Assembly: GCA_030429235.1 (NCBI GenBank)
Contig: JAUIDB010000010.1
Coordinates: 13,334 to 77,333, forward strand
Source: Thermoanaerobaculia bacterium
GTDB taxonomy: Bacteria; Acidobacteriota; Thermoanaerobaculia; Multivoradales; JAIOJS01
DNA: 64,000 nucleotides
Direction: 5' to 3'
The notes beneath the pieces are model-generated. The model saw only the letters and a program-made list of their open reading frames with translations, was not told the origin of the DNA and ran no database searches. Both the position numbers and the translations under genes were made by a program. Shown here in pieces: positions 6,805-59,675 of this stretch (positions are counted from its first letter, which is position 1; each line of letters starts with the position of its first letter).

Positions 6805-7619
6805 CGAGACTCACCCTTCCGAGACAGTTCGAGTTGAATTGATTGGAGTGACTCCCCAGTTCCTGCTAGGAAGCGAGATACCGCCTGCTTTTTTTCTGGC
6901 CGGAGATCTAGGGTTGCCGGACAGAGCCTCTTCTTCGTACAGCTGATACGGGATCGTTCCCACTCGTCTATGGATTGCGCCAACTCGAGCAGTCGAAGCG
7001 CTACGGTTTCTCGCTGTCGTTCGTAGCTATCGATTCTGTGAGACAGGGTGTTCTCGGTCCGTTCGGTTGTCTCCCGGACCGCAGTGAGTTCCTTTTTCGT
7101 CTCATAGAGCTGTTCGAGTGTTTCGTTGGCTTTGGCTTGCAGGTCCACAAGTTCGTCCTCGACGGTTTGTATGTGCGCCCCGACCCCAGCGAGTAGAAGC
7201 TCGAAACTCGTACGGATTTCCGAGCGCACTTCGTCGTCGTAGTTCTGAAGCTGCCCCTCCACTTGACGAAAGACCTTCTCTCGATGATCGTTAAAGGCGC
7301 TGGGAATTTGGTCTACGTACTGCATCACCTGCTCGTTGAGTTCGAGGTGTCTACGCACCAGATCGTCGTGTTCACTCCGAAGTACTGATAGCTCGACTTC
7401 GTGAATCCGGAGTTCCTTCCGGAGGTCGGCCGTCAACTCGTTCGCTCGCTGAAGCTGATCTGAACAGCCCTGGCCTTCGGACCTGCATCTCTTGAGATCC
7501 CTTTCGCAGCAGGCTGCGGTGCCACTGATAAGAAAGACGAGCAGTAGCCGAGTCGGCAACGAGCGGCTCCGGCGGTGGAGGCTCCTTTCAGATCGAACCA
7601 TCATGGATTCTTTGTCCAT
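6801..7619 (-). CDS. Coiled-coil lipoprotein (hypothetical), probably co-transcribed with the ankyrin gene
   Basis: ATG at 7619 with an AAGGAG RBS and a signal plus lipobox-like 'LISGTAAC'. A long heptad-rich coiled-coil region follows. There is a 4-nt overlap with the downstream ankyrin gene. Confidence 0.6.
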   Translation of the reverse strand: MDKESMMVRSERSLHRRSRSLPTRLLLVFLISGTAACCERDLKRCRSEGQGCSDQLQRANELTADLRKELRIHEVELSVLRSEHDDLVRRHLELNEQVMQYVDQIPSAFNDHREKVFRQVEGQLQNYDDEVRSEIRTSFELLLAGVGAHIQTVEDELVDLQAKANETLEQLYETKKELTAVRETTERTENTLSHRIDSYERQRETVALRLLELAQSIDEWERSRISCTKKRLCPATLDLRPEKKQAVSRFLAGTGESLQSIQLELSRKGESR

Positions 7620-7684
7620 CCGATCTCCTTCTTCCGAGGCCTTCTCGGGCGGCCTTCACAAAACAACTCGTGGGGCCATGGATC

Positions 7685-7700
7685 TGCAAGGCCCGGGCCA
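7685..7700 (-). promoter_or_regulatory. Sigma-54 -24/-12 promoter candidate for the coiled-coil/ankyrin operon
   Basis: The minus strand reads TGGCCC-gggcc-TTGCA, ~65 nt upstream of the ATG at 7619. GG and GC spacing is correct, but the match sits in a GC-palindromic context and could be chance. Confidence 0.35.
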
Positions 7701-7820
7701 AGCCCTCCCGGAGGCCTGGGTATGTCTGGACGCGATTTCCGGCGCGACCCCGAGTGCAAGCAGGTGAAGAGACTGGCTGTGGACGTTGCTAAGCTAGTGT
7801 CTACCCGTGTCTCTCGGAAG

Positions 7821-10577
7821 ATGCGCGCTCCTGACACAATAGGGCCAGCAATGAACAGAGACGGGGATCAGGGTGTCCCATCGGTTCCGAGCCCGGCCCT
7901 AGCAGCCGGAGCCACCTTCCGCTCCCGCTACGAGATCGTCGAACGGCTCGGTCAGGGCGGCTACGCCGAGGTGTACCGGGCTCAGGATCTAGAGATCGAT
8001 CGCGAGGTCGCCTTGAAGATCCTGCGGCCGGATCGGACGAGTGACGCTTCGGTACGCCGGCTGAAGCGGGAGGCGGCGGTGGCCCGGGATGTGGAGAGTC
8101 CTCATCTGGTTCGGGTCTTCGAGGTGGATACGTCGACTCTGCCGGCGTTTCTCACCATGGAGGTGGTGGAGGGGGGCAGCCTGCTGGAGGAGATCGCGGC
8201 GGGCCCGGTGCCGATCGAGCGGGTGCTGGAGGTGGCGCGGCAGGTACTCCTCGGGTTGGAAGCGCTGCACGGAATGGGGATCCTGCACCGGGACATCAAG
8301 CCCAGCAACGTGATGATCACGTCGGACGGCCAGGTGAAGCTGGCCGACTTTGGGATGGTCCACCAACTCTCGCGAGAGTCGACGCGGCTGACCGAGTCTT
8401 CGGCCATCGTGGGGACGATCGACTACGTGGCTCCGGAGACGGTTCTCGGCGATCCGCCCGACGGTCGAGCCGATCTCTACGGGCTCGGGTTGTTGCTGTT
8501 CGAGATGCTCACGGGGAGCCTGCCCTTCGGTGACTCCCCTTCGGCTCTCGGCGCTGCGTTGGAGCGCCTGCACCGATCACCGCCTCGGGTGGTACCGCTC
8601 CGACCAGAGACCCCCCGTTGGCTAGAGAAGGTCGTCCTGAGGCTCCTCGAACGACGTCCGGAAGACCGTTTCGCGAGTGCCGAGGCCGTGCGCCGCGCCT
8701 TGCGCGAGCATCGTGTGCCGCGATCTCGTCGGGTGTGGCGACGGAACGCCTGGCTGGCGGCGGGGATCGTGCTGGCCAGTGTCGCGAGCGCCTGGGTGCT
8801 GGCGAGGATAGGGGGATCGATCCCGGTCCTCTCGCACATCACGGCGCAGGAACCGGAGCCGGGCCTCTTCGGGCTCTCGGCTGACGGTGAGGTGCTGTGG
8901 CATCGGCCCGACCTGAGGTCCGGTTGGTGGGTCACTGCCCAGTCGAGTTCGGGGGGCGGACCGATTCCCCTCGGGTTGCGGGCCGGGGCCGGGCCACAGG
9001 ATCTGGAGGTGCTGCACCAGTTGCTGGTTCTCGATCCCACCAGCGGGGAGACGGTGGACCGAGTGACGCTGCCTTCGGCGGGAGATGAGTTTCCCGGTTT
9101 TGCACCGCGGTTCCAGCCGGAACTCCACGCGGTCGACATCGATGGAGATGGCGGCGAGGAGGTGGTGGTCACCTACTTTCACACCTACTGGCCCTCGTAC
9201 ACCGTGGTCTATGAACCCAGATGGCGCCGGGCGCGGGTGGCGCTGTTGGCGGCGGGGCACCACCGCCCGGTCGGCGTGGCCGACGTGGATTCTGACGGCA
9301 ACAACGAACTGATCTTCCTGGGAGTTTCGAACCGCATGGGTTGGTACGCTGGGCTGGCCGCAGTTTCGATGGTGCCTCCGATCAACCGGCCGGGAGAGGC
9401 GACGCTGAGTACGGCGGCGGCCACGACGCCGGACGGCTACTTCCTCAGGCGATGGCGGGGCATGGTTTGGTACGCGCTCGCTCCGCCCGGGATCTGGTGC
9501 TCCGGGATCGGCACCTGTACCGAAGTGGACCCCGATGCTCGTGAGATTCGCCTGGAACCCCCCGGCGGCTCGCAAGTGCGCTACTCGTTCGACGGGTACC
9601 TAGTGGAAGACCGGGTCTCCGGCCTCGATTCGGCGGAGCGGAACCGCCGCCGGGGTCGCGCCTACAAGCACCTGGAGGAAGCGGGGCGGCTGCTCGATTC
9701 GCGGCTCGAAGATTGGGGCGAGGAGGAGGCCGAGCGAGCGGTGGAGTTGGCTCGTACGGTCCGCGACCGCTTCCTTACCGACTGGGCCCTGCGCACGCTG
9801 GGGAGGATCGTGATCGAGCGCGGACGAATCGAGGAAGGAGAGCAGATCTTCGAACAACTCTCGGTCGACTCTCCAGCTGCTACCAGCGCCGCCTTCGAGG
9901 CCGCCCACGCGCTGCAATTGGCTGGCCGCCCGGATCGCTCTCTCGATTGGTACCCGCGGGCCTTCGGCGCCGCTGGGGACTGGGGACCGGGCCGCAGTCG
10001 CGACCGGCTGGTTCGGGGGTTGTTGTTGGCCTACAGCGAGATCGGTGACTACGAAGGAGCACAGAAGGCCCTCGACCGGTTCAGCAATCCCGGGCAGATC
10101 ACGTCGCGAATCGACACGTATCTGAGGCCCTACGTCGCCTGGCGGATGGAGGATCGATCCGTAGCCCCCATGCCCTACCGCGCGGGGAACCCCGATCTGG
10201 AGGTCTATTGGAGCCTCGAGCAGGCGCTGGCTCACGGTACCGAACTCGAAGTCCTTTGGGAACGGGTGCAACTCGCCATGGACCAGAGTTCGGAGGAATT
10301 GCCTTTGCTGCAGAATCTGGCCGGTGAGATCCAATGGAAGATGGGTCGCCGTGCGGAGGCTTTGGTCTGGTTCGAGAGGGCTTTCGCGGGAGGTGAAGCG
10401 GAGCTCGAGCGGAGTATCTCGGTCCGTGCCCACTTCGATCTGATCGTCAGCCGACTGCTGCGGGGAGTCCGCGACGCAGGCCTCGAGACCAGAAGCAGAG
10501 AGATCGCGAGCGTGGCGGAAGCCTGGGATTCTCATCAGCGGCAGCTGCGTCATCTCATGTCTGTCAGAGGGCAGTAA
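7821..10577 (+). CDS. Hanks-type Ser/Thr protein kinase with a TM segment, FG-GAP/VCBS-like repeats and C-terminal TPR-like region
   Basis: Kinase subdomains 'LGQGGYAEVYRA', 'VALKIL', 'HRDIKPSNVM', 'DFGM' and 'APE' are present. There is a TM segment after the kinase, 'DIDGDGGEEVVV'/'DVDSDGNNELIFLG' repeats, and a TPR-like C-terminus. The ORF opens at 7575 but overlaps the convergent gene. Start chosen at the ATG at 7821 (7851 is also possible). Confidence 0.8.
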   Translation: MRAPDTIGPAMNRDGDQGVPSVPSPALAAGATFRSRYEIVERLGQGGYAEVYRAQDLEIDREVALKILRPDRTSDASVRRLKREAAVARDVESPHLVRVFEVDTSTLPAFLTMEVVEGGSLLEEIAAGPVPIERVLEVARQVLLGLEALHGMGILHRDIKPSNVMITSDGQVKLADFGMVHQLSRESTRLTESSAIVGTIDYVAPETVLGDPPDGRADLYGLGLLLFEMLTGSLPFGDSPSALGAALERLHRSPPRVVPLRPETPRWLEKVVLRLLERRPEDRFASAEAVRRALREHRVPRSRRVWRRNAWLAAGIVLASVASAWVLARIGGSIPVLSHITAQEPEPGLFGLSADGEVLWHRPDLRSGWWVTAQSSSGGGPIPLGLRAGAGPQDLEVLHQLLVLDPTSGETVDRVTLPSAGDEFPGFAPRFQPELHAVDIDGDGGEEVVVTYFHTYWPSYTVVYEPRWRRARVALLAAGHHRPVGVADVDSDGNNELIFLGVSNRMGWYAGLAAVSMVPPINRPGEATLSTAAATTPDGYFLRRWRGMVWYALAPPGIWCSGIGTCTEVDPDAREIRLEPPGGSQVRYSFDGYLVEDRVSGLDSAERNRRRGRAYKHLEEAGRLLDSRLEDWGEEEAERAVELARTVRDRFLTDWALRTLGRIVIERGRIEEGEQIFEQLSVDSPAATSAAFEAAHALQLAGRPDRSLDWYPRAFGAAGDWGPGRSRDRLVRGLLLAYSEIGDYEGAQKALDRFSNPGQITSRIDTYLRPYVAWRMEDRSVAPMPYRAGNPDLEVYWSLEQALAHGTELEVLWERVQLAMDQSSEELPLLQNLAGEIQWKMGRRAEALVWFERAFAGGEAELERSISVRAHFDLIVSRLLRGVRDAGLETRSREIASVAEAWDSHQRQLRHLMSVRGQ

Positions 10578-10638
10578 GTAGCGACTGTGCTATTCTGAGC
10601 GCACTTTCCGATCCGAGAAGAAGGGGGAGGCCTCACGC

Positions 10639-12414
10639 ATGCTGCGTTTTGTCGCCCGGAACGAGGGCCAGGAGCGTCGATTTCCGATCGCGGCCGATGG
10701 CGTGTGGACCGTAGGCTCGGCGATCGAGTGCGAACTCTCTGTCCCCTTCGACGGGGTCTCGCGGCGGCATGCCAGCCTCGAGCGCCGGGGAAGCCGAGTC
10801 TGGCTCACGGATTGTGGTTCCAAGAACGGCCTCAGGGTGGAGGGGCGGGTCGAGGCGCAGATCGAACTGCTGCCAGGGATTCGGGTAGACCTCGGTGGCA
10901 CGGTGGTCGAGATCGAAGAGGCAGCGTCGTCGGATACACGATTCGCGGTCGAGCTGCGGCGTTCGTCGAGCGTGGCTTCTCGACTGCGCACCAGTACGGC
11001 GGGAGCGATGGCCGGCGACGGACGTTCTTCACCCGCTGCCGCGCTCGCCTTCGTTCGGCGGTTCGAGCGAGCGTCGCTCCAACCGGGCTCGGAACTCTGG
11101 TCGCGACTCGTCGCCGAGACTCTGGAGATCCTCGAGGCCGAAACCGTGGCGGTGCTGCAGCGGGTTCCCGGGGAGCCTCGCGAGGTGTTGGAACAGTGCT
11201 GGGGCAGGCACCGGGTGCCAGGAGCCGAGGTAGAGGATCCGTGGAGCGCGGCCCAGCTCTCGGCCGAACTGGAAGGGGAATCGGCCAGAATCGTGGCCAT
11301 CCTGGGCCAGGGGGCCAAGGTCGATCGCTGGAAGGAGGACTTCTTCTCCTACCTGGCGACCCGCTGGCAGGAGCAGCGTCACGACCCTCCCGCTCCTCGC
11401 GCCCAGCCGGCCCAGGTCGAGCCGGAACGAGGCCCCGTGGTTCTCGGGCGCTCCGCCGCCATGGTAGAGGTCGAAACGCTGGCTCGGGCCGCGGCCGAGA
11501 GTGGTCTCAACGTCGTGCTCCTCGGCGAGACGGGGACCGGCAAGGAGGTTCTCTCACGCTTCATCCATCGTCTGCGTGCCACCGGGAAGGGTGAGCTGGT
11601 AGCGATCAACTGCGCTGCGATTCCCTCCGAACTCCTCGAAGCCGAACTCTTTGGCGTTGCCAGCCGAGTGGCGACCGGCGTAGATCCCCGCGAGGGGCTC
11701 TTCGTGCGCGCCCACGGGGGAACCCTTCTCCTGGACGAGATTGGCGAGATGCCCTACACGCTGCAGGCGAAACTGCTGCGAGCGCTCCAGGAGCGGGAGG
11801 TCATGCCGGTGGGAGGGCGACGGCCGATGCCGGTCGATCTTCGAGTCATCTCGACGACGCACCGTCCCCTGGCTCGGCTCGTGGCCGAGAAGAAGTTTCG
11901 CGCTGATCTCTACTACCGACTCCGCGGACTCGAGATCTGGCTTCCACCCCTCCGAGAGCGACTCGAAGACATTCCGGAGTTCGCCACTCTCTTTGCCCAG
12001 AGAGCAGCCCGTGCTTCGGGAAAGCGGGTCCGCGGGATCACCGAGCGTGCGCTGCGGCTTCTTACCTGCCACCGCTGGCCCGGCAACGTGCGGGAACTCG
12101 AGACCGACATGGAACGCGCTGTGGCGTTGTGTGCCGACGGAGGCAGCATCGACTCGCGGCTCTTCTCCCACCTGGATCCAGTCGCGGGACGACCTAGTTC
12201 CGTCTCGGTGCTCGAAGCCCCGACCTCGAGGGCCGTGGCGCCCAAGGCTGGCCACTCTACGGTCACACTGCGGGAGGAACTCGACGCTACCGAGCGCGAG
12301 CGAATCCGACGAGAGCTGGCGCTTTCGGGCGGCAACAAGTCGGAGGCCGCTCGAAGGCTCGGGGTGACCTGGAATGGGCTGGTGATGAAGATGAAGCGAT
12401 TGGGGTTACGGTAG
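10639..12414 (+). CDS. Sigma-54-dependent transcriptional activator (bEBP) with an N-terminal FHA domain and C-terminal Fis-type HTH
   Basis: ATG with a GGGGGAGG RBS. The FHA core is 'VGSAIECELSVPFDGVSRRHASLERRGSRVWLTDCGSKNGLRVEG'. The AAA+ sigma-54 interaction domain has a 'LLGETGTGKE' Walker A, 'GGTLLLDEIGEM', and 'FRADLYYRL'. The HTH is 'GNKSEAARRLGVTWNGLVMKMKRLG'. Confidence 0.85.
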   Translation: MLRFVARNEGQERRFPIAADGVWTVGSAIECELSVPFDGVSRRHASLERRGSRVWLTDCGSKNGLRVEGRVEAQIELLPGIRVDLGGTVVEIEEAASSDTRFAVELRRSSSVASRLRTSTAGAMAGDGRSSPAAALAFVRRFERASLQPGSELWSRLVAETLEILEAETVAVLQRVPGEPREVLEQCWGRHRVPGAEVEDPWSAAQLSAELEGESARIVAILGQGAKVDRWKEDFFSYLATRWQEQRHDPPAPRAQPAQVEPERGPVVLGRSAAMVEVETLARAAAESGLNVVLLGETGTGKEVLSRFIHRLRATGKGELVAINCAAIPSELLEAELFGVASRVATGVDPREGLFVRAHGGTLLLDEIGEMPYTLQAKLLRALQEREVMPVGGRRPMPVDLRVISTTHRPLARLVAEKKFRADLYYRLRGLEIWLPPLRERLEDIPEFATLFAQRAARASGKRVRGITERALRLLTCHRWPGNVRELETDMERAVALCADGGSIDSRLFSHLDPVAGRPSSVSVLEAPTSRAVAPKAGHSTVTLREELDATERERIRRELALSGGNKSEAARRLGVTWNGLVMKMKRLGLR

Positions 12415-18578: not shown

Positions 18579-19793
18579 ATGAACCGAAACCGAGTCCTTC
18601 GGCGATCCCTTGGCGTCAGCCTTGCCTGGTGCATCGCGGCGCTGTCGGTGGCGGCTGGCTCGAGCACAGCTCCCGACCCGCCGATCGCCCTGGGGGTCGA
18701 GAAGACGCTCGACTCCGACCGGCTGGGACACGTTCGTCGGGTCTTCGTCTCCCTACCGTCCGACTATGCCAAGGGGGAGGAGCGGTATCCGGTGCTCTAT
18801 CTGTTGGACGGCGACCGACTCTTCGAGTCGACGGCGGCGGCCGCTCGGTTCCTGGCTTCGGCCGGCGCGATCCCTCCCCTCATCGTGGTCGGAGTGGCCA
18901 ACGATGTCGACCGCGGCTACTACCTCACTCCGCCCTTCGATCGTTGGCTTTCCCGCAGTGGGGGCGCCGACGAGTTTCTGGGGTTTCTCGAGACCGAGCT
19001 GATCCCCTGGGTCGACTCCGAGTATCGGACGGCGCCGCATCGCACCCTCGCCGGTTCGTCGTTCGGCGGCATCTTCGTGCTGCATGCGCTGTACTCGAAG
19101 CCGGACCTCTTCCACGCCTACCTCGCCGCCAGTCCGAGCCTGCACATGGGGGAGGGATCGCTGGTCGACGCGGCGGCGTCGAGACTCGATCGCGGGCTGC
19201 CGACTTCGCGCTTTCTGTTTCTGAGCCTGGCCGACGAACGCAACGAACTGGTTTGGGGCCAGGAGATGCGGACCCACTTCGACCGGTTGGTCGAGCTACT
19301 GAACTATCGCCACCGATCCGCGGGGCTGCGGTTCGAGGCGCGGCAGTATCCCGACGAGACCCACTCCACGGTGAAACTGCGCGCCTTCTCGGACGGGCTG
19401 CGCAGCCTCTTCTGGCAGTGGCCCATCCCCGAGTTTCGCTCCCGCCGTGGCTTGTCCGGTCTCGAGGAACACTTTCGTGAACTGTCGAAGGAACTGGGGT
19501 TCGAGTTGGGGATTCCGGTGGTGGCCTTCGTCGACCTCGGGTCTCGGGCCCTCGATCGCGACGAGGCCGACCAGGCGGTCGAGTTGTTCCGCCTGGCTAC
19601 CGAGCGGTTCGCGGAGTCACCGATCCTCTGGCACGGCCTGGCGGAGTCGCTGGAGAAGGTCGGTGAGGGTGACTCGGCGCTCGAAGCCATGGCCCGAGCC
19701 GTGGACACGGCGCAGAGATCGGACGATCCCGACCTGGAGCGGTACCGCCGCCGCCTTCAGGCGATGGAGCAGCGACTGGGCGTCGAGCCCTGA
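18579..19793 (+). CDS. Secreted esterase-family alpha/beta hydrolase with a C-terminal TPR-like helical domain
   Basis: Signal peptide, then 'YPVLYLLDGDRLF' and 'LAGSSFGGIFVLHALYSKPDLF'. It is a paralogue of the gene at 16833..17822. The C-terminal ~120 aa is helical and TPR-like. Confidence 0.7.
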   Translation: MNRNRVLRRSLGVSLAWCIAALSVAAGSSTAPDPPIALGVEKTLDSDRLGHVRRVFVSLPSDYAKGEERYPVLYLLDGDRLFESTAAAARFLASAGAIPPLIVVGVANDVDRGYYLTPPFDRWLSRSGGADEFLGFLETELIPWVDSEYRTAPHRTLAGSSFGGIFVLHALYSKPDLFHAYLAASPSLHMGEGSLVDAAASRLDRGLPTSRFLFLSLADERNELVWGQEMRTHFDRLVELLNYRHRSAGLRFEARQYPDETHSTVKLRAFSDGLRSLFWQWPIPEFRSRRGLSGLEEHFRELSKELGFELGIPVVAFVDLGSRALDRDEADQAVELFRLATERFAESPILWHGLAESLEKVGEGDSALEAMARAVDTAQRSDDPDLERYRRRLQAMEQRLGVEP

Positions 19794-21447: not shown

Positions 21448-23745
21448 TTGTCCGTGCTTTCTTGCGTTCCGAAGACTGGTTTCGAAGCAGCAGCGAGTGG
21501 ATCGACCGGCCATGAGTTCAGCGCTAGTTCACTTCGGCCGTCGACCGACCCGGTACGGATTCTCGGTTTGACGCTCGGAAACAAGGGGGCCGACTGGCTG
21601 CGCCATGGGGTGGTCTTGTGGCTCGTGTCGTTGGCACTAGGCTGCAGCTCCGAGGCACCCTGGAACGTCTTGCTGGTGACTCTCGACACCACCAGGGCGG
21701 ACTTCCTCGGCTGCTACGGCAAGACCTCCGCGCAGACTCCCGTTCTCGACCAACTGGCCGAAAGGGGGACTCTCTTCGAGAGCGCCTATACCTCGAATCC
21801 GGTAACCCAAGCCGCGCACTCGACCATTCTCACCGGGGTCTACCCCATGGTTCACGGAGTGCGAGACAACATTCTCTTTCGCCTTCCCGAGGAGATGACG
21901 ACCCTCGCTGAGCATCTTCGGGTCGCTGGCTACGCGACCGGTGCCGCGGTCGGTGGCTTTCCCTTGACGCGGGAGTTCGGGACCGCACAGGGTTTCGACT
22001 TCTATGACGACGACTTGACCCATGGCCGCACAGATTTCCGGGGCCGGCCGATTCCGGATCGGCTCGCTACTTGGTACGACGAGCGTCCCGCGCCGCAGGT
22101 CAACGATGCGATTCTCAGCTGGCTCCGCGAAGATCGGTCGGTTCCATTCTTCGCCTGGGTGCACTATTGGGATCCGCACGAACCCCACATCGCTCCGTCG
22201 CCCTTCAGAGAACTGTTCATCGACGATCCCTACCAGGCCGAAATCGCCTACGCCGATCAAAGCCTGGGTGCACTACTCGACGCTCTGGAGCGTGCTGGCG
22301 AACGGCACCGCACTCTCGTCGTGGTGACCGCAGACCACGGCGAGGGACGGGGCGAACACCGCGAGAGCACACACGCGTTTCTTGCGTACGATGCCACGCT
22401 CCGCGTGCCGTTGATTGTCAGCGCGCCCGATCAAGCGCAGAACCGGAGGATTGCGGAACGCGTCGGCACGGTCGACATCGTGCCGACCATCCTGGATCTT
22501 CTCGATCTACCGTCCAGTGACCAGCTTCAGGGACGATCTCTGGCGCCGCTGATGCGCCAGCCTGCTGCCTCCGACAGTGTGGCGACCCCGCGCCATCGCA
22601 CTCCCTACTACAGTGAGAGTCTGTCGCCCCGGCTCTCTCATGGACTCGGAGAGCTTCGAGCCCTGTTCCTAGGTCCTTGGAAGTACGTCCACGGGCCTCG
22701 ACCGGAGCTGTTTCATCTGGGTCGCGACCCCGGCGAGCTTCGTGACCTCATCACGGTCGAGACAGCCCAAGCCGAATCGATGAGATCCCAGTTGCAGGAG
22801 TTCCTGCACGCAAGGAAGAGCAAAGAGGTGACGAAGGCCTTGCATGACATCGATGAAGAAACGCGGCAGAGATTGGCAGCCCTGGGCTACCTCGCCTCCA
22901 TGCCGGGTACCGGCGAGCAGGTCGACGAGATCCTGCGCTCTGATGGCGAAGCTCCCCAGGACCGTGTGGGCGACATCAACCTCCAGAGCCGTTTGAGAAG
23001 ACAGCTCGGAGTGCGACACTTCGCTGCCGCGGAGCGCACGGCTCGATCGCTGTTGATGGCCGCGCCCGAGAACACCTTCTACCTGAAGTCCCTCGTGGCG
23101 GCGCAACTCGGGCTCGACAAACCTGAGGAGGCGGCCCGCGAGCTGCTCGCCGTGACGCCGTCGGCTGCGCTTGGCCCTCAGTTCCTAGCAGTTGGCCAAG
23201 CTCTCTTCGACTCTGGCGCGGAGGTTCGAGGCCTCGAGCTGATTCGGCGAGGCATCGAAGCTGGAGACGTGGCCAACGGCGAAGCGCAGCTGGCCAGGCT
23301 GCTGCTTGCGTCCGACGACATCGAGGGATTCCAGCAAGCCACGAAGCGGGCTCTCGAGGCCGATCCGGAGCATCGAGGATCCCGTCTGGAACGGGCTCGC
23401 TACTACCTGGCGACCGACCGACTGCGTGAAGCAGAAAGCGATCTGCTGCGGCTCTTGCGCGCGAACCCTATCGACCCCGAAGTGCATCTGGAGTACGCGG
23501 GTCTGCTCCGTAGGGAAGGGCAGTCCGAGGCAGCGGAAAGGCGCTTGCTGCGCGTCCTGCGACTCGCACCGCACTGGTGTGACCCCTACCTGGAGCTGAT
23601 CCGGTTGCATCGAGAAGCCCTCCGGCCAGCGGAGGCTTCCGAGGTCTTGGGACGGATGCGCACACACTGCACCGACGCAAGCCAACTTTCCCATGCCGCC
23701 ACTCTTGCCGTGGCGATGGACACAGCTGGAGGATACCGCCCGTGA
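21448..23745 (+). CDS. Sulfatase-like (alkaline-phosphatase superfamily) lipoprotein with Thr at the nucleophile position and a C-terminal TPR domain
   Basis: The lipobox is 'LVSLALGCSS'. 'LLVTLDTTRADFLGCYG' carries the metal-binding Asp. 'NPVTQAAHSTILTG' aligns to the sulfatase 'CSPSRAALLTG' with C to T and R to H. 'VVVTADHGEG' is present, and TPR repeats fill the last ~300 aa. The true start may be a GTG nearer the lipobox. Confidence 0.75.
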   Translation: MSVLSCVPKTGFEAAASGSTGHEFSASSLRPSTDPVRILGLTLGNKGADWLRHGVVLWLVSLALGCSSEAPWNVLLVTLDTTRADFLGCYGKTSAQTPVLDQLAERGTLFESAYTSNPVTQAAHSTILTGVYPMVHGVRDNILFRLPEEMTTLAEHLRVAGYATGAAVGGFPLTREFGTAQGFDFYDDDLTHGRTDFRGRPIPDRLATWYDERPAPQVNDAILSWLREDRSVPFFAWVHYWDPHEPHIAPSPFRELFIDDPYQAEIAYADQSLGALLDALERAGERHRTLVVVTADHGEGRGEHRESTHAFLAYDATLRVPLIVSAPDQAQNRRIAERVGTVDIVPTILDLLDLPSSDQLQGRSLAPLMRQPAASDSVATPRHRTPYYSESLSPRLSHGLGELRALFLGPWKYVHGPRPELFHLGRDPGELRDLITVETAQAESMRSQLQEFLHARKSKEVTKALHDIDEETRQRLAALGYLASMPGTGEQVDEILRSDGEAPQDRVGDINLQSRLRRQLGVRHFAAAERTARSLLMAAPENTFYLKSLVAAQLGLDKPEEAARELLAVTPSAALGPQFLAVGQALFDSGAEVRGLELIRRGIEAGDVANGEAQLARLLLASDDIEGFQQATKRALEADPEHRGSRLERARYYLATDRLREAESDLLRLLRANPIDPEVHLEYAGLLRREGQSEAAERRLLRVLRLAPHWCDPYLELIRLHREALRPAEASEVLGRMRTHCTDASQLSHAATLAVAMDTAGGYRP

Positions 23746-25496
23746 TGATACTGCTCAGCCGTCGACTGAGGGCTGTCCCTTCCATCCTCTTCCTACTCGC
23801 TGTCGTGTCGCTCGCCTGCGCCAGCAACGACTCGTCCTCGCCGATCGACCCGGCCCGAGCTGGTGTCGTGGCTTCCTGGGACAGCGGGAGCCTTGGGCTC
23901 GAGGAGATCGAACAGGCACTCTCGACTTCGGTCCTCGAAACCTGCCGCAAGGCTCGCCGCCAGGGCGGACTGGAGAACCTGATTCCCTGCTATCGAGAGT
24001 TGTCCGAGGCTCTGGTGCTGGAACGTCTGGTGCTGGCCGATGTCGCCGACCTCGCGGAGGCAACGCGGAGGGTAGAGGGTTTTGGGCAGTTGGAACGGGA
24101 AGCTCTTCTAGGGTTGTTCCTGAGCCAGGTGCGAACTGAGATCTCGATCGAACCCGCTGAGATCGAGCGCCACTTCGAGGCCGACCCGGAACGGTTCCGC
24201 CAGCCTAGAGCTGTCGAGTTGTCGACGCTCTTTCGTCGCCACGAGAATCCGAGTCAGCCCGAGGCGACTCTCGCCTATCTCGAGGATCTCAAGCGGCGCT
24301 TCGAGGCAGGCGCTTCCTTTTCGGCACTCTCTCGGTCGCATTCGCATTCCGAGACCCGCTCTCGCGGCGGCGAGGTCGGTAGCGTTTCCGAGTTCGACCT
24401 ACCACCCCGGCTCGCTCAGGTCGCCTTCTCACTGGAGGTTGGCGAAGTCAGCGACCCAGTTCTGGTGAGAAACGGTGCGATTCTCTTGCACGTTCGCGGG
24501 GCGCGGGCAGCGGTCGAGCCCAGTCTGTCCAGTGCCGAGCTAGAGATCCGCCGCGAACTCCTACGCGAGCGGATCCGGTCGATCGTGTCAGAGCACACAA
24601 AGGACCTGACGCCGCCCGCTGGCTCGACCGTCCTCACCTCAGGGGAGCTCTCGACCGCGGTCGAGGCGGGCGTTCCAGATCGGATGGTTCTCGAGGTCGA
24701 AGGGGATTCCCTCGATCTCGCGGCGTTGCATCGACTGGCTGGGATCGGCAATCCCGGTCGGGCGCTGACCGAGGCCCAGTTCGGTCAACTCGAAGCTGAG
24801 TACCGGCACCAGATCGAGCGCCGACTCCTCGGTCTGGAACTCGTTCGGTCCCCGCCACCCGATCTCTCGGAAGCGGCTTTCGAGCGGGTACGGCGGAACG
24901 CGATTGATCGGCTCGTCGATGATCGAGTGCAAGAGGCCCTCGACCTTCGGCTCGACGAGACCGTCCTCCAGGAGTACTACGCGGACAATCGTCTGCACTA
25001 TCAGAGCCCGCTGCGGCTCGAGTTGCGGCTGTGGAGCCTGCCTTTCGGCGACGATCCACCCGCACAGCTTCGTCAGATGGAGCAGTTCCGAGCCGACCTG
25101 ATCGGTCACCGGAGGACGCTCGACGAAGCGGTCCAACGACTGGGAGGGGTCGTTCGAGAACTAGGCTGGAGGACCATCCAGGAACTACCGAGCGACATAC
25201 CGCCCAAAGCCCGAACCTATCTGGCCGAGGCTGCCTCCACGGGGTACTCCGTTCCCTACCAACAGGCCGAGGAACTCCACCTGTTCGTCATCGATGCGCG
25301 GCAGGATCCCCTGCCGCTTCCCTACGGGGAGGTCAAGGAAGAGGTGCGGTCGGACTATCTGAGGCGATTCCACCATCAGCTCTATCGAGAGATGCTGGAC
25401 GAGCGCCTGGCGGCCAGATCCTTCCAGTTCCACGAAACAGCCCTCCATGACCTACTGATTCCGAGCGGCGACCGCGATCCAACTGCGGTGCGGTAG
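23742..25496 (+). CDS. SurA/PpiD-like periplasmic chaperone with a parvulin-type PPIase domain (lipoprotein)
   Basis: Its start overlaps the upstream stop (GTG 23742 or ATG 23745). The lipobox is 'VVSLACAS'. The parvulin-like core is 'GEVGSVSEFDLPPRLAQVAFSLEVGEVSDPVLVRNGAILLHVRG', flanked by SurA-N-like helical regions. Confidence 0.7.
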   Translation: MMILLSRRLRAVPSILFLLAVVSLACASNDSSSPIDPARAGVVASWDSGSLGLEEIEQALSTSVLETCRKARRQGGLENLIPCYRELSEALVLERLVLADVADLAEATRRVEGFGQLEREALLGLFLSQVRTEISIEPAEIERHFEADPERFRQPRAVELSTLFRRHENPSQPEATLAYLEDLKRRFEAGASFSALSRSHSHSETRSRGGEVGSVSEFDLPPRLAQVAFSLEVGEVSDPVLVRNGAILLHVRGARAAVEPSLSSAELEIRRELLRERIRSIVSEHTKDLTPPAGSTVLTSGELSTAVEAGVPDRMVLEVEGDSLDLAALHRLAGIGNPGRALTEAQFGQLEAEYRHQIERRLLGLELVRSPPPDLSEAAFERVRRNAIDRLVDDRVQEALDLRLDETVLQEYYADNRLHYQSPLRLELRLWSLPFGDDPPAQLRQMEQFRADLIGHRRTLDEAVQRLGGVVRELGWRTIQELPSDIPPKARTYLAEAASTGYSVPYQQAEELHLFVIDARQDPLPLPYGEVKEEVRSDYLRRFHHQLYREMLDERLAARSFQFHETALHDLLIPSGDRDPTAVR

Positions 25497-25766: not shown

Positions 25767-26267
25767 ATGGTGACTTCCCGAGCGAGGCTGCTGGCCTGCA
25801 TCGCCGGCGGCATTCTGATCTTGATGGCTGGTGTCGACCCCGCCCGGGCACAATGCAATACCACCGGGAATCCGAACATGACCACGTTCCCGACCGGCCC
25901 CACCATCGTGATCACCAAGTACCTAACGGCGGCCACGACCTGTACGGGGACCGTGAGCACTGCCCTCGCCTGCTACCCATCGAATGGAGAGGTGGTCACC
26001 GGGTTGACGTTTCTGGTTGCGAGTGCGCTGACGGCAACAGTCAACCCTGTTTGTCAGTGGAACTGTGGCTGTGGCACCGTCACCACGGACACGGGAGACG
26101 GTCTGCCGGTGGAACTGATGGACTTCGAGATCGAAGCTTCGTCCCAAGCGGCTGGCATGCCAGTCGAGGAGACTCCGGCCAGAGCGGCTCCACTCGCTTC
26201 GAGTACCAGAGCCTCGAGCGCCGACTCCAACGCGCCGGTGTATCGACCAGAACCTCAGCCACTCTGA
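25767..26267 (+). CDS. Small secreted Cys/Thr-rich protein (hypothetical) carrying a 'LPVELMDFEIE' motif
   Basis: Has a signal peptide and seven Cys in the mature part. Lies in a lower-GC patch. Confidence 0.45.
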   Translation: MVTSRARLLACIAGGILILMAGVDPARAQCNTTGNPNMTTFPTGPTIVITKYLTAATTCTGTVSTALACYPSNGEVVTGLTFLVASALTATVNPVCQWNCGCGTVTTDTGDGLPVELMDFEIEASSQAAGMPVEETPARAAPLASSTRASSADSNAPVYRPEPQPL

Positions 26268-30064: not shown

Positions 30065-32230
30065 GTGAGTACACCACGCCTCGTCTTGCTCGGCAGCCTT
30101 GCCGTCCTCCTCCTCACCACTCCGGCGCTGATGGCTGGGGTCATCACCGTCGACACCGCCCTCGGCACGCGAGTGGACGACATGGGCGATGGCCCCTGCT
30201 CCTTCAAGGAGGCCCTGGCGAATGCCTTCGGGTCGATGCAGCAGTTCGACGATTGCGAGGACCCCGGGATGGCGCCCCACACCATCGTGTTCACGGGGGC
30301 CTTCGTGATCAATATGGACGATACCGGCTCGATCGCGAACGTGGTGAACGAACTGACCATTCAGGGGCCGGTGGTTTTGGACGGAAACAATCAGATGCAC
30401 GGGGGATTCCTCCTCGATGCGGCCAGTTCGGCCATCCTCACCGTCAACCAGGTGACGTTTCAGGACAACGGCGCGAGCGCGATCAACGTGCGGGACAGCG
30501 CCACGCTGACGGTGAACGCGAGCGTCTTCGACAACAACCAGGCCAACAACGGAGGCGCGATCCAGGCCGGAGGTAGCGGTTCGGTGACGGTCAATCTGTC
30601 GAACTTCACCCGCAACGATGCCACCTTCTTCGGCGGGGCGATCTTCAAGGGCAATGGGTGCGAACTGTTCGTCAGCGGCTCCAACTTCGGCGGACCGATG
30701 CTCGGTAACGAGGCCGACCAGGGGGGAGCGATCTACATCGCGGGCGCGGCCACCGGCGAAGGGGTGGTGATCACGGGATCGACGTTCCTCGGGAACTCCT
30801 CCGACGGCACCGATACCAACGACGGGGGTGGGGCGATCTACATCCAGGGCGCGGGGAACGGCTCCTACATCTCGATCTTCGGCGGTGCTTTCGGCTCCTC
30901 GGTGCCGCTGACCGGTAACAGTGCGATGAGCCGCGGTGGAGCGATCTACAACAACGCCACCTCGGGGCTGGTGAACAGCGACCCCACCGACATTCTCGAC
31001 GCGGGGATCATCGGCGTGGAGTTCGTGGGCAACAGCGCCGGTGATCGGGGCGGAGCGATCTACAACCGCGGGTCGATGAATGTCTTCCACGCTACCTTCG
31101 ATGGCAACAGTGCCGTCGGCGGGGGAGCGGTGGCCGACGACCAGCAGATTTCGGGCCGGGAGTTGACGATCTCGAACTCGACCTTCAATGGCAACAGCGC
31201 TTCGGGTGACGGGGGAGGACTCGGCAGCTTCGACTCCGACTCCAACGTGATCCTGCGGAATGTCACCCTCGCTGGGAACAGCGCTTCGACGAGTGGCCGC
31301 GAACTCTTCGCGACCGGCGACATCGACCTTGGCAACGTGCTGATCGCCAACGGGTCGGCCGGCGCCAACTGCGCCGGGGGCGGGACCTTCGTCGACTCGA
31401 TGGGCAACTTGCAGTGGGATCCGACCATGGACACCGGCTGTGGAGCGGCGATCCCCGTGGCTGATCCTCTGCTCGCGGCGCTGACCTTGAATCCGGGGCC
31501 GATCCCGGTCCGCACCATGGCCCTCGGAGCGGGGAGTCCGGCGCTGGGAGCCGGTGTACCGGCGATCTGTTCGGCCCTGCCGGTCTTCATGCTCGACGCT
31601 CGCGGGGTGCCGCGCCCTACCGCCTGTGATAGCGGAGCCTTCGAAGGTGGCGATGCGGCCCGGCTGGTCATCAACGAGATCGACTACGACCAGGGAGGGA
31701 CCGACGATCACGAGTTCATCGAGATCTACAACGGCGGTGCGGCCTCGATCAACCTCGACAACGTCAGTCTGGAGTTGGTGGACGGCAACATGGGGACGGC
31801 GAGTCTGTACGCGCCGTCGCCGATCGACCTGCCCAACGCCGACCTTGGTCCGGGCGAGTACTACGTCGTGTGTGGTCAGACCGGTCTCGGGATTCCGCTG
31901 ATCAACTGCGACCTCGACCTCGCGACCGACGATTTCCTGCAGGACGGCGATCCGGATGCAATCGGACTGCGGCTTTCGGGGCTTCTGATCGACGCCGTGA
32001 GCTACGGTGGCGCCGATACCGGGGCGCCCTACACCGAGACCGCGGGTGCCGGCGACGACCCCGGTGGTACTCCGTTCCTCGGCCTCTCGCGGTTGCCCGA
32101 TGGCGCCGACAGCGATGACAACTCGGCCGACTTTTCGAGCCGTTGTGCCACGCCGAAGGAGGCCAACGTGCCGGACGCGACGTCCTGTTCGATGGTCCCC
32201 GTGGAACTGCTCGGTTTCTCGGTCGAGTAG
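30065..32230 (+). CDS. Secreted right-handed beta-helix (Pmp/'GGAIY' repeat) protein with a C-terminal lamin-tail domain (LTD)
   Basis: GTG start with an AGGAG RBS and a signal peptide. Multiple 'GGAIY(I/N)..' polymorphic-membrane-protein-like repeats are present. The LTD signature is 'VINEIDYDQGGTDDHEFIEIYNGGAASINLDNVSLELVDGNMG...GPGEYYVV'. It ends ...CSMVPVELLGFSVE. Confidence 0.75.
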   Translation: MSTPRLVLLGSLAVLLLTTPALMAGVITVDTALGTRVDDMGDGPCSFKEALANAFGSMQQFDDCEDPGMAPHTIVFTGAFVINMDDTGSIANVVNELTIQGPVVLDGNNQMHGGFLLDAASSAILTVNQVTFQDNGASAINVRDSATLTVNASVFDNNQANNGGAIQAGGSGSVTVNLSNFTRNDATFFGGAIFKGNGCELFVSGSNFGGPMLGNEADQGGAIYIAGAATGEGVVITGSTFLGNSSDGTDTNDGGGAIYIQGAGNGSYISIFGGAFGSSVPLTGNSAMSRGGAIYNNATSGLVNSDPTDILDAGIIGVEFVGNSAGDRGGAIYNRGSMNVFHATFDGNSAVGGGAVADDQQISGRELTISNSTFNGNSASGDGGGLGSFDSDSNVILRNVTLAGNSASTSGRELFATGDIDLGNVLIANGSAGANCAGGGTFVDSMGNLQWDPTMDTGCGAAIPVADPLLAALTLNPGPIPVRTMALGAGSPALGAGVPAICSALPVFMLDARGVPRPTACDSGAFEGGDAARLVINEIDYDQGGTDDHEFIEIYNGGAASINLDNVSLELVDGNMGTASLYAPSPIDLPNADLGPGEYYVVCGQTGLGIPLINCDLDLATDDFLQDGDPDAIGLRLSGLLIDAVSYGGADTGAPYTETAGAGDDPGGTPFLGLSRLPDGADSDDNSADFSSRCATPKEANVPDATSCSMVPVELLGFSVE

Positions 32231-54861: not shown

Positions 54862-55449
54862 TTGGATGACCTGACACTCGTAGAACGTTGCCGACTCGGC
54901 GACGACATCGCCTGGGAGGCACTCGTGCGGCGCTATCAGCACCGGGTGTTCGGGGTCGCCTTGCACTATCTACGGAATCGAGAGGATGCCCAGGACGCAG
55001 CCCAGGAGATCTTCGTCAAGGTCTACCGCGGGCTGGGGAAACTGGAGCCGGGGCGCGCCTTTCTGCCCTGGTTGCTGCGCGTCGCCCGCAACGGTTGCAT
55101 CGACCGCATTCGACGGCGCAAGGTCCGAACCCCCGAGATCGAAGTGCCAGTCGAAGATTGCTACGACCTGTCGGCCGACGATCCCACTCCCGAGGACCGT
55201 TCACTACTCAGCGGGCGGCAGGCTCTGCTGTACCAGGCGTTGGGCCAGATCAGCGACAACCATCGAGAGCTGATCCTGCTCAAGGAGATCCAGGAGATGG
55301 AGATTCGTGAGATCGCGGATCTGCTCGACCTGCCGCTGGGAACGGTCAAGTCCCGTTCCAACCGCGCCCGGCTGGAACTCGCACGGGCGGTGCGCTCGCT
55401 CGAAACGGGCCAGGCACGCAACCCGGCGGTACAGGAGGTGGCACCATGA
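54862..55449 (+). CDS. ECF RNA polymerase sigma factor
   Basis: Region 2 is 'DAQDAAQEIFVKVYRGLGKLEPGRAFLPWLLRVARNGCIDRIRRR'. Region 4 is 'ILLKEIQEMEIREIADLLDLPLGTVKSRSNRARLEL'. It uses a non-ATG start as given by the ORF track. Confidence 0.85.
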   Translation: MDDLTLVERCRLGDDIAWEALVRRYQHRVFGVALHYLRNREDAQDAAQEIFVKVYRGLGKLEPGRAFLPWLLRVARNGCIDRIRRRKVRTPEIEVPVEDCYDLSADDPTPEDRSLLSGRQALLYQALGQISDNHRELILLKEIQEMEIREIADLLDLPLGTVKSRSNRARLELARAVRSLETGQARNPAVQEVAP

Positions 55450-56246
55450 TCTGCTCGGATTTCGAGGGGCGTCTGGAGGCACTCGCAGAGGGCCGCCTCG
55501 GCGACCGTGCCGCGCAGGACTGCCGAGAGCACGCGGCCCGTTGCTCGGCTTGTTCCGAGTTGCTCTTCCTAGCGGGTCTCGGGCCCACCGAGGGGTCCGT
55601 GGTGGATCTCACGCCGGCGGTACTGGCGGCCACCAGTGGTTCCCTCTGCGAAGCGGTCCAGGGGCAACTGGCGGACGTCGAGTCTGGGGTCGGAGTTGCC
55701 GGAGCGGCCACCTACGACGAGGCGTTGGCGTCGCACCTGGACCACTGCCCGGAGTGCGAGGCGATCGCCGGTGTGCTCCACGGGTTGCCGCGGGAACTCC
55801 CCGCGCTGGCCGAGGTCCGGGCGCCGTACGGTTTCGTCGCCGCCGTACTCCGGCGCACCCTGCCGCCGACGACTCGCTGGCGACGGCGTTGCGCCACCGC
55901 GTGGCAGGATTGGGTCCGGCGGCCACGCTTCGCTACCGAACTGGCCTACGCGCTCACCGTCGCGCTATTGATCCTGGTCGGCAATCCGGCCACCCCCCTG
56001 TCGGCGATGTCGGATACGGCGCGTCGGGCGCTGCCGCGCGGCGAAGACCTGGCCCAACGAGTCGCTCCCCTGGAGAGCAAGCTCGAGCAGTATGGGGAGT
56101 CGATCGGCCACTCGCCGGCGGTGCGGGTGTTCGTGGCGGGGGCGGAGTGGAGTCAGGACCGGGTGGACGATCTGTGGCAGAGCACGTCGAGGGCCCTGTC
56201 CGACCTCGAGGCCGGCCTGACCGAGCTGTTCGGTCCCGGCCGCTAA
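55446..56246 (+). CDS. Anti-sigma factor with an N-terminal zf-HC2 zinc finger
   Basis: 'CSDFEGRLEALAEGRL...CREHAARCSAC' follows the zf-HC2 pattern. The ATGA overlaps the sigma gene. It has a TM segment and a periplasmic C-terminal part. Confidence 0.7.
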   Translation: MICSDFEGRLEALAEGRLGDRAAQDCREHAARCSACSELLFLAGLGPTEGSVVDLTPAVLAATSGSLCEAVQGQLADVESGVGVAGAATYDEALASHLDHCPECEAIAGVLHGLPRELPALAEVRAPYGFVAAVLRRTLPPTTRWRRRCATAWQDWVRRPRFATELAYALTVALLILVGNPATPLSAMSDTARRALPRGEDLAQRVAPLESKLEQYGESIGHSPAVRVFVAGAEWSQDRVDDLWQSTSRALSDLEAGLTELFGPGR

Positions 56247-58906: not shown

Positions 58907-59024
58907 CGGGGATCATCTCCGTGGCGAGACTTCCGGCCGAGGAGTGGACGGAACCTCGGCGGGGTCAGCTGCGTCTTCTCTGTGAACCGGCACTCAGGTG
59001 CCCAACCCCATGAGGAGAGACGAG

Positions 59025-59675
59025 ATGTCCGAAACACCGATTTCCGATCAGGTCCCATCAGAGGAGGCGCCAGAGAGTGCAGCGCAGAGTCAAGCCCCGC
59101 CGGCCGCCGCGGCCGCGCCGAGGTCTGCTTCCTATCGAACCACCCCGACGTACTCCACCGTGGTCGCCGATGACCCGCGCCGCAAGTCCCCGCTGCTGGC
59201 TTCCTTTCTGTCGGCGATGCCGGGCCTGGGTCAGGTCTACGTGGGCTACTACCAACGGGGCTTCGCCCACCTGCTGACGGTGGCTGGCACGATCGCCGTT
59301 CTCAACACGCGTTCGCTGCACAACAACGAGGCCCTGGTCCCGGCGGTGGCCTTCTTCCTGGTCTTCTTCTGGCTCTACAACATCATCGATGCCGGCCGGC
59401 GGGCGTCCTTCTACAACTACGCCCTGGCCGGAGGAACCGACATCAACCTGCCTCAGGATCTCGGGGCACCGATGAGTGGTTCGATCGCCGGTGGCGTGGT
59501 GGCCATCGCGGTGGGTGCCCTCCTCCTGAGCCACACCCTGCTCGACTTCTCGATGGACTGGCTCGAGGAGTGGTGGCCGATGGCGATCATCGGGTTCGGC
59601 GTGTTCCTGGTCTACCGGGCGCGACAGGACCAGGCGAAGAACTCGACCGCAGCCCACGATCTCGAAGGCTACTGA
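59025..59675 (+). CDS. Hypothetical integral membrane protein (4 TM)
   Basis: The ATG at 59025 has a GAGGAG RBS. The N-terminus is acidic and Pro/Ala-rich, followed by four hydrophobic helices. Confidence 0.55.
   Translation: MSETPISDQVPSEEAPESAAQSQAPPAAAAAPRSASYRTTPTYSTVVADDPRRKSPLLASFLSAMPGLGQVYVGYYQRGFAHLLTVAGTIAVLNTRSLHNNEALVPAVAFFLVFFWLYNIIDAGRRASFYNYALAGGTDINLPQDLGAPMSGSIAGGVVAIAVGALLLSHTLLDFSMDWLEEWWPMAIIGFGVFLVYRARQDQAKNSTAAHDLEGY

Follow-up and report, generated by a model that had tools for sequence, protein, structure and literature searches.

The question raised by this locus is what a sulfatase-like protein does when a threonine stands where sulfatases carry the cysteine or serine of the C/S-x-P-x-R motif. 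The protein is encoded by gene A, on the forward strand of a 64,000-nucleotide stretch of a Thermoanaerobaculia bacterium genome (contig JAUIDB010000010.1, here called the window). A preliminary description of the window had placed gene A at 21448-23745 and proposed, as its core claim, that the product is likely a phospho-ester hydrolase or transferase and not a sulfatase. Every sequence and structure test that we ran speaks for that proposal, and gene A was moreover found to be co-inherited with the gene for a parvulin-type peptidyl-prolyl isomerase (PPIase).

The threonine-type catalytic domain of gene A

The open reading frame (ORF) at 21448..23745 (+) is present as described, but position 21448 is only where the frame begins and not the start of the gene. 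Translation likely starts at the TTG codon at 21568, which gives a protein of 725 amino acids and is also the start of P0001, a database protein identical to gene A. Residues were numbered from this codon. The features of gene A are listed below, where T+21 denotes the position 21 residues after the threonine and NPP the nucleotide pyrophosphatases/phosphodiesterases.

21568..23745 (+): gene A, an S1-sulfatase-fold catalytic domain with a putative threonine nucleophile, followed by a TPR tail
21568..21645 (+): lipoprotein signal peptide, MTLGNKGADWLRHGVVLWLVSLALG-C26, read from the sequence
21685..21702 (+): D40-T-T-R-A-D45; Asp40 is a predicted metal ligand, aligned to D218 of human ENPP1 (DGFRAE) and invariant in the family
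21805..21870 (+): nucleophile segment T80-Q-A-A-H84...Y-P-M-V-H96-G-V-R-D-N101, with Asn101 at T+21, as in NPP enzymes
22162..22179 (+): H199-Y-W-D202-P-H204; His204 lies at the sulfatase HisB site and is aligned to ENPP1 D376
22333..22374 (+): D256-H257-G-E259-G-R-G-E-H264-R-E266-S-T-H269; Asp256 and His257 are predicted metal ligands, invariant in the family
22966..23727 (+): TPR-like helical-repeat tail, residues about 467-720, with about 15 helices

The lipoprotein call of the preliminary description agrees with the signal peptide, which ends in the lipobox L-A-L-G-C26 (cysteine codon 21643-21645), and the family consensus retains L-x-x-C. Pfam Sulfatase matched with an E-value of 3e-47 (residues 73-353 of the long ORF), together with SGSH_C, and Phosphodiest (PF01663) matched at 3.8e-14 (53.5 bits versus a cut-off of 23). 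Gene A has the sulfatase alpha/beta fold with its C-terminal subdomain, as S1 sulfatases do, and the AlphaFold2 model has a mean confidence score (pLDDT) of 85. Several Pfam TPR families matched near the C-terminus; a match to the PrsT/PEP-CTERM TPR family of NCBIfam (42 bits versus a cut-off of 312) is generic TPR similarity.

The threonine, Thr80 (codon acc, 21805-21807), lies in the motif P-V-T-Q-A-A-H. Comparison by phmmer with PDB entries 4upl, 4upi, 7p24 and 3b5q aligned it to the cysteine or serine of the C/S-x-P-x-R motif, the facing motifs being C-G-S-S-R in 4upl, S-Q-P-S-R in 3b5q and S-G-P-S-R in 7p24. A profile of the gene A family was aligned by hhalign to AslA, a serine-type sulfatase of E. 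coli (AslA and EptA sequences were taken from strain MG1655), with a probability of 98.9% and an E-value of 1.5e-17; Thr80 was paired with the serine of S-S-P-T-R, and His84 with its arginine. Together with the alignment to ENPP1 presented below, three routes thus place a threonine at the nucleophile site, as first reported from the sequence, and none of them places a cysteine or serine there.

None of 120 homologues with 44-100% identity to gene A departs from Thr80 or His84. When 1.84 billion representatives were searched exhaustively with phmmer, 19,205 matched at E <= 1e-30, a set of cluster representatives that takes in other sulfatase-like proteins too. Among the 148 best new representatives (clustered at 50%), 146 have the motif T-x-[PAV]-x-H, the other two are truncated at the N-terminus, and none has a cysteine or serine. 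Because the threonine is invariant across hundreds of homologues it is probably functional and, judged by this conservation, it is not a chance substitution.

Other residues of the sulfatase active site have been replaced in gene A. The segment G-K-W-H-[LM]-G of sulfatases (G-K-W-H-M in AslA) reads G-G-F-P-L, so that LysA and HisA have become glycine and proline in both the phmmer and hhalign alignments. The arginine of C-x-P-x-R is replaced by His84 and the second aspartate of the DD pair by Thr41. His204 was paired with HisB of AslA, and D256-H257 with its D-N. The LysB region contains either His269 (against 4upl and EptA) or Tyr274 (against AslA), depending on the template. Scores for the NCBIfam families of arylsulfatases (PRK13759, 147 bits versus a cut-off of 481) and choline-sulfatases (137 bits versus 433) were low. 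The preliminary description had recommended a search for maturation enzymes, and neither a formylglycine-generating enzyme (PF03781) nor a radical SAM protein of the anaerobic sulfatase-maturating type was found in the Pfam annotation of nearly all substantial genes in the 64-kb window. Formylglycine cannot be formed from threonine (PMC5066984), and none is therefore expected in gene A, where the nucleophile is neither cysteine nor serine. From these residues we infer that gene A does not encode a sulfatase.

The residues around Thr80 resemble those of the NPP enzymes. When the family profile was compared by hhalign to residues 210-442 of human ENPP1 (100% identical to PDB 6wet), the alignment had a probability of 93.9% and an E-value of 1.6e-7, with the pairs D40/D218, T80/T256 (the nucleophile), H84/H260, H96/H272, N101/N277 and D256-H257/D423-H424. 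The segment V-T-L-D40-T-T-R-A-D-F-L of gene A faces S-L-D218-G-F-R-A-E-Y-L of ENPP1. The Zn2 ligands of ENPP enzymes are two aspartates, one histidine and the threonine nucleophile (PMC8808174), and the nucleophile and the Asp/Asp/His set are matched in gene A by alignment. In mouse ENPP1 (T238/N259) the asparagine at T+21 touches the substrate (PMC6200793); the corresponding N101 is invariant in the gene A family. At the Zn1 site His204 faces D376, H380 is without an aligned partner, and the distal histidine lies beyond the aligned ENPP1 fragment. The NPP-type fold is not the closest structural relative of gene A.

A second likeness was seen, in the C-terminal half, to the phosphoethanolamine (pEtN) transferases, based on an alignment to E. 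coli EptA and on published residues of MCR-1. The hhalign comparison with EptA (probability 81%) paired DHGEGRGEHRESTH with DHGESLGENGIYLH, so that D-H-G-E-S-L-G-E-N-G-I-Y-L-H of EptA stands opposite D-H-G-E-G-R-G-E-H-R-E-S-T-H269 of gene A. The spacing of D256-H257-G-E259...H269, in which the second histidine follows 12 residues after the first, equals that of EptA and of MCR-1 (D465-H466-G-E468...H478). D465 and H466 of MCR-1 belong to Zn1, E468 is hydrogen-bonded to H478, and H478 and H395 form a second site or contact phospho-Thr285 (PMC5216409). Gene A scored 18 bits against the NCBIfam model for EptA (cut-off 561), 21 against MCR-12 (1200) and 22-31 against LtaS (970), and the N-terminal multi-helix membrane domain of the pEtN/LtaS type is not present in gene A, where just a 26-residue lipoprotein signal precedes the catalytic domain. 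Such a multi-helix domain anchors those characterised threonine-type members of PF00884 that are known to us (LtaS, EptA/MCR, OpgB, YejM).

Relatives with only 31-37% identity to gene A (from Aminicenantes, Planctomycetota and other metagenome-assembled genomes, MAGs) keep D40, T41, R43, D45, T80, H84, H96, N101, H199, D202, H204, E225, D256, H257, E259, H264, E266, H269, Y274 and K372, with the consensus P-[ILV]-T-L-P-S-H...Y-P-x-x-H-G-V-R-D-N. Conservation down to 31% identity argues for an active enzyme.

A co-inherited parvulin and a secreted neighbour

The gene downstream of gene A encodes a PPIase. Its start codon, either ATG at 23745 or GTG at 23742, shares nucleotides with the gene A stop (TGATG). 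This link, noted from a single locus in the preliminary description, became far stronger when other genomes were considered. The neighbouring features are the following.

23742..25496 (+): parvulin-type PPIase lipoprotein of 583/584 residues, with Pfam Rotamase_2 at 1.3e-16 and the lipobox V-S-L-A-C
25767..26267 (+): small secreted cysteine-rich protein, directly after the PPIase and related to the tag protein family described below, with the motif TGDGLPVELMDFEIE at nt 26091-26135
30065..32230 (+): unrelated secreted LTD-domain protein of 721 residues, with the C-terminus ...MVPVELLGFSVE-stop at about 32192-32230 and the same C-terminal motif

The PPIase has weak matches to the PrsA, SurA, PpiC and NifM families, and the lipobox cysteine is conserved in the parvulin family. 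With two strict motif patterns and one genome per GTDB species we collected 208 relatives of gene A. The best 80 of the 208 all come from MAGs, mostly of Acidobacteriota (Thermoanaerobaculia, Vicinamibacteria, Holophagae and Aminicenantes). Loci with about 40% identity or more and at least 1.5 kb on both sides were scored for a parvulin gene on the same strand and no more than 900 nt from gene A. Such a gene adjoins the orthologue in 33 of the 34 close loci, as compared to 0 of 22 among relatives with <=37% identity, and in the one remaining close locus the tag protein gene lies between the PPIase gene and gene A, in the order PPIase, tag protein, A. Parvulin genes flank gene A on each side in 12 of the 34 loci, and four loci with independent gene calls agree with the linkage. 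Several MAGs contain the pair two or three times, each gene A with its own parvulin (OFTM223, with loci L010, L032 and L062; MAG_62; IB1_shallow). The two are even fused in P0069, a protein of 1202 residues from an 11-kb Logan contig, in which residues 17-653 of A are joined in frame to residues 42-575 of the PPIase; its TPR tail is shortened and its parvulin part lacks a signal peptide, and as a single instance it may stem from an assembly artefact or a deletion. The linkage, the duplicated pairs, the fusion and the conserved lipobox cysteine show that gene A and the parvulin are a co-inherited unit.

The second parvulin gene lies directly upstream of the gene A orthologue in many loci, in the order tag protein, PPIase 2, enzyme, PPIase 1 (L019 5038-6870, L021 2828-4558, L022 5190-6944, L025, L030, L031 5536-7002, L037). 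The public gene call for locus L006 has a gene on the opposite strand at this site, which is probably a mis-call. Just past the parvulin, 15 of 53 loci (including L004 12148-15297, L006 12248-15097, L010, L012, L013, L015 and L018) encode a membrane protein of about 950-1070 residues with a spermine/spermidine-synthase domain, which is absent from this window. A likeness of the TPR tail and PPIase to the YfgM-PpiD pair was considered and set aside as analogy only, there being no YfgM-type (TPR_21) Pfam match.

Clustering of the flanking ORFs, in which many seemingly conserved clusters were shadow ORFs of GC-rich genes and were discarded, identified a third conserved neighbour of gene A, a secreted protein of about 240-300 residues here called the tag protein. 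The family has no match in Pfam or NCBIfam. Its ORFs stop three residues past N-A-I-F-R-[VA]-T-G-D-N-L-P-V-E-L-M-x-F-x-x-[DE], and the C-terminal peptide ...LPVELMxFxx[DE] is present in all 120 listed members, every one of which is named "hypothetical". Of the close loci, 31 of 49 carry the motif, each time beside a parvulin gene and in 29 cases in the orientation of gene A; of the distant loci, 1 of 31 has it (Fisher p = 2e-8). In the window, the protein at 25767..26267 has T-G-D-G-L-P-V-E-L-M-D-F-E-I-E followed by 43 more residues, and the LTD-domain protein, encoded 4 kb further on, ends in M-V-P-V-E-L-L-G-F-S-V-E. As an ending of this type is also found on the unrelated LTD protein, the peptide behaves as a modular C-terminal tag linked to the gene A module, and it looks like a C-terminal tag of an undescribed kind. 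The tag protein is a candidate partner or client of the gene A enzyme.

Further genes in the window were noted independently of the gene A module. A putative esterase (PF00756) with a C-terminal TPR region of its own is encoded at 18579..19793, 1.8 kb upstream of gene A, and is thus another fusion of a hydrolase and TPR near gene A; a second PF00756 esterase gene precedes it directly on the contig. The region 7575..12414 encodes a Ser/Thr protein kinase with TPR matches, followed by an FHA-domain sigma-54 activator, with a PadR regulator and a "Sensor" membrane protein nearby; none of these regulatory genes bears on the gene A finding. A promoter and terminator scan around the gene A operon gave nothing useful.

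Proposed reaction and alternative explanations

We consider it probable that gene A encodes a membrane-anchored, periplasm-facing lipoprotein in which the two-subdomain scaffold of the S1 sulfatases carries the active-site logic of phosphoryl transfer by a threonine nucleophile, and which works with a dedicated chaperone or foldase. A divalent metal would be held by Asp40, Asp256, His257 and the Thr80 oxygen and would activate Thr80, which would attack a phosphate ester to give a covalent phospho-threonine intermediate. Like its counterpart in NPP and PafA, Asn101 would touch the substrate or an oxygen of the phosphoryl group. A cluster of histidines and glutamates (His204, His269 and Glu259, also His199, His264 and Glu266) would stand in place of the HisB/LysB pair of sulfatases and could bind a second metal or protonate the leaving group, as His395, His478 and Glu468 do in MCR-1. 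The intermediate would then be resolved by water, in a hydrolase, or by an acceptor, in a transferase. That the enzyme acts as a unit with a chaperone or foldase of its own is indicated by its TPR tail and by the one or two parvulin lipoproteins strictly inherited with it. As to the substrate, we would guess at a macromolecule of the envelope in preference to free nutrient esters, and a role in envelope biogenesis is likewise a guess. The data show which residues are present, how far they are conserved, the fold and the gene linkage, and it is from these that metal binding, chemistry, substrate and a physical complex are inferred.

Several observations weigh against this assignment. The overall sequence and fold of gene A are nearer to true sulfatases than to any threonine enzyme. 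The second metal site is uncertain, as His207 is not kept beyond the close family, H380 of ENPP1 is without an equivalent and the alignment of the LysB region depends on the template. A physical complex of gene A and the parvulin would rest on gene linkage, which proves none. Lastly, no characterised member of the family was found in a literature search that left most subscription journals outside its scope.

An alternative that we regard as rather unlikely is that gene A encodes a phosphate-scavenging phosphodiesterase or phosphatase, similar to NPP or PafA and acting on free nutrient esters, with the parvulin as a private folding helper, the TPR tail serving oligomerisation and the tag protein an unrelated neighbour. 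Such a function would fit the NPP-like nucleophile segment with its asparagine at T+21, the exported lipoprotein location and the very large environmental family of 19,205 representatives, with its many members in marine and sediment MAGs. Against it, none of the annotated loci was seen to contain pst, phoBR or phoU, gene A and the parvulin are duplicated as a unit, and the tag protein is associated with them at p = 2e-8. The phosphate-scavenging enzymes of the superfamily are not known to need a TPR tail or a dedicated parvulin.

The reading as a phosphoryl-transfer enzyme can be extended to include the tag protein. Gene A, one or two parvulin lipoproteins and the secreted protein would then form a periplasmic system steered by the C-terminal peptide, with the tag docked at the TPR tail, the client bound by the parvulins and a phospho-substituent attached to it or taken from it by the Thr/metal domain. 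The peptide GDGLPVELMDFEIE, the tag ending ...T-G-D-N-L-P-V-E-L-M-x-F-x-x-[DE]-COOH, may be the ligand of the TPR tail. The canonical TPR carboxylate clamp (Lys/Asn/Asn/Lys/Arg) was not found in the tail of gene A, where Arg662 is the only invariant charged residue, and the idea of a tag receptor thus gains no support from it. We judge a system of this kind unlikely; if it were true, a tag-directed module would be a new route of protein sorting or maturation in Acidobacteriota.

It is more doubtful still that gene A encodes a weak or inert scaffold or sensor comparable to the periplasmic domain of YejM/PbgA/LapC, in which the old active site binds a lipid or glycan phosphate and the TPR tail recruits partners. 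In members from different phyla with as little as 31% identity, the nucleophile, all predicted ligands of the first metal site and about ten more polar residues are still unchanged, as is typical of active enzymes, and the score against the YejM/PbgA/LapC family (NF038282) is far below the cut-off of 825 (33.8 bits for gene A and 18.9 for gene B, the second sulfatase-like gene of the window), with no membrane domain present. A true sulfatase that uses threonine or another residue by a mechanism without formylglycine is barely credible: S1 sulfatases and phosphonate monoester hydrolases do give the best matches in sequence and in fold, and relatives are named "arylsulfatase A-like enzyme" in some sources, but formylglycine cannot be made from threonine (PMC5066984), the sulfate-binding arginine, LysA and HisA are all replaced, the window has no maturase gene, and the arylsulfatase score falls far short of its cut-off.

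Gene B and comparison with known systems

The preliminary description had also pointed to T-Q-P-S-T at the same site in a second lipoprotein, gene B, and this motif was found in the sequence.

56390..58906 (+): gene B, a lipoprotein of 838 residues (W-L-A-C29) with two beta-sandwich domains that resemble carbohydrate-binding modules (CBM; about 56477-57430), then a threonine-type sulfatase-fold domain

Pfam Sulfatase matched the C-terminal 500 residues of gene B with an E-value of 5e-40. The motif is W-T399-Q-P-S-T403 (Thr399 codon 57584-57586), and 120 homologues all retain both of these threonines. Gene B has neither a TPR tail nor a PPIase partner. The family profiles of A and B were aligned by hhalign over the whole catalytic domain, up to a common ...A-L-G-Y-[LI] ending, with a probability of 100%, an E-value of 4e-43 and 31% identity. 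By this alignment the two are sister families within one very large threonine clade, so that the threonine was inherited and not gained twice, and the argument that two independent paralogues share the substitution does not hold. The second shell of gene B is unlike that of gene A, with Thr403 at the Arg/His site, Arg420 at T+21 and the segment D610-H611-G-H613, and its profile does not align to ENPP1 (probability 3%). The CBM-like domains suggest a glycan-linked phosphate as the substrate of gene B.

Gene B is preceded by mutually overlapping genes for an extracytoplasmic function (ECF) sigma factor and a zf-HC2 anti-sigma factor (54862..56246) and followed by a gene for a LiaF-like membrane protein (58998..59675). 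An assignment of gene B to an ECF stress regulon was dropped, as two homologous loci lack this context. Some distant members of the threonine clade stand in tandem, two to four paralogues in a row (L066 and L087, from Planctomycetota and Vicinamibacteria MAGs), and in P0241 (1549 residues) and P0242 (1469 residues) the catalytic-domain query matched two separate stretches of one polypeptide.

Threonine proteins that cannot be formylglycine sulfatases make up 30 of the 59 sequences in the PF00884 seed (PMC5066984). That the Pfam Sulfatase family contains such non-sulfatases has thus already been published, and it is the gene A family, its hybrid active site and the gene module that appear to be undescribed; the same literature search returned no paper on a soluble or lipoprotein threonine enzyme on the S1 scaffold with a TPR tail, on the parvulin partner or on the tag protein. 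Close relatives of gene A are named "sulfatase-like hydrolase/transferase" by NCBI, and members of the threonine clade "arylsulfatase A-like enzyme" or "sulfatase" in other sources. Metagenomic studies take sulfatase counts in marine Acidobacteriota as a capacity for the removal of sulfate from organic compounds (PMC8528874), and counting threonine-clade proteins that are annotated as sulfatases would inflate such estimates.

The pairing of gene A with a parvulin resembles known pairs of enzyme and foldase (NifM for the nitrogenase Fe protein, PrsA, and the lipase-specific foldase Lif), in which the foldase gene is likewise inherited with one enzyme gene. Unlike in these pairs, the putative partner of gene A is a lipoprotein of 580 residues with long flanking regions, is often doubled and is often joined by the tag protein. 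The strict linkage to the parvulin, and that to the tag protein, suggest an envelope module that has so far gone unstudied, in a phylum with hardly any genetics.

With regard to the catalytic domain, gene A differs from the formylglycine sulfatases and phosphonate monoester hydrolases of the S1 group (E. coli AslA, human ARSA, PDB 6hr5, 7oz8, 4upl and 2vqr) by having a threonine and no formylglycine, and a TPR tail and parvulin partner in place of a maturase. YejM/PbgA/LapC has a five-helix membrane anchor, unlike gene A, and active-site residues are far better conserved in the gene A family. With the NPP/ENPP enzymes (ENPP1, PDB 6wet, and Xanthomonas NPP) and PafA, which are not the closest in fold, gene A shares the threonine in P-x-T-x-P-x-H...T-G-x-Y-P-x-x-H-G-[IV]-x-D-N, the asparagine at T+21 and the metal motifs D-x-x-R-A-[DE]-[YF]-L and D-H-G. 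With EptA/MCR-1 and LtaS/OpgB it shares a threonine nucleophile on a PF00884 domain and a predicted metal site of Asp/Glu, Thr and Asp-His, and with EptA/MCR-1 also the D-H-G-E-x9-H spacing, in which the glutamate polarises the second histidine (PMC5216409). The gene A family thus joins the S1 scaffold to a nucleophile segment like that of NPP and a His/Glu segment like that of the pEtN transferases, and would serve as a natural intermediate in studies of the switch between sulfate and phosphate chemistry in the alkaline-phosphatase superfamily.

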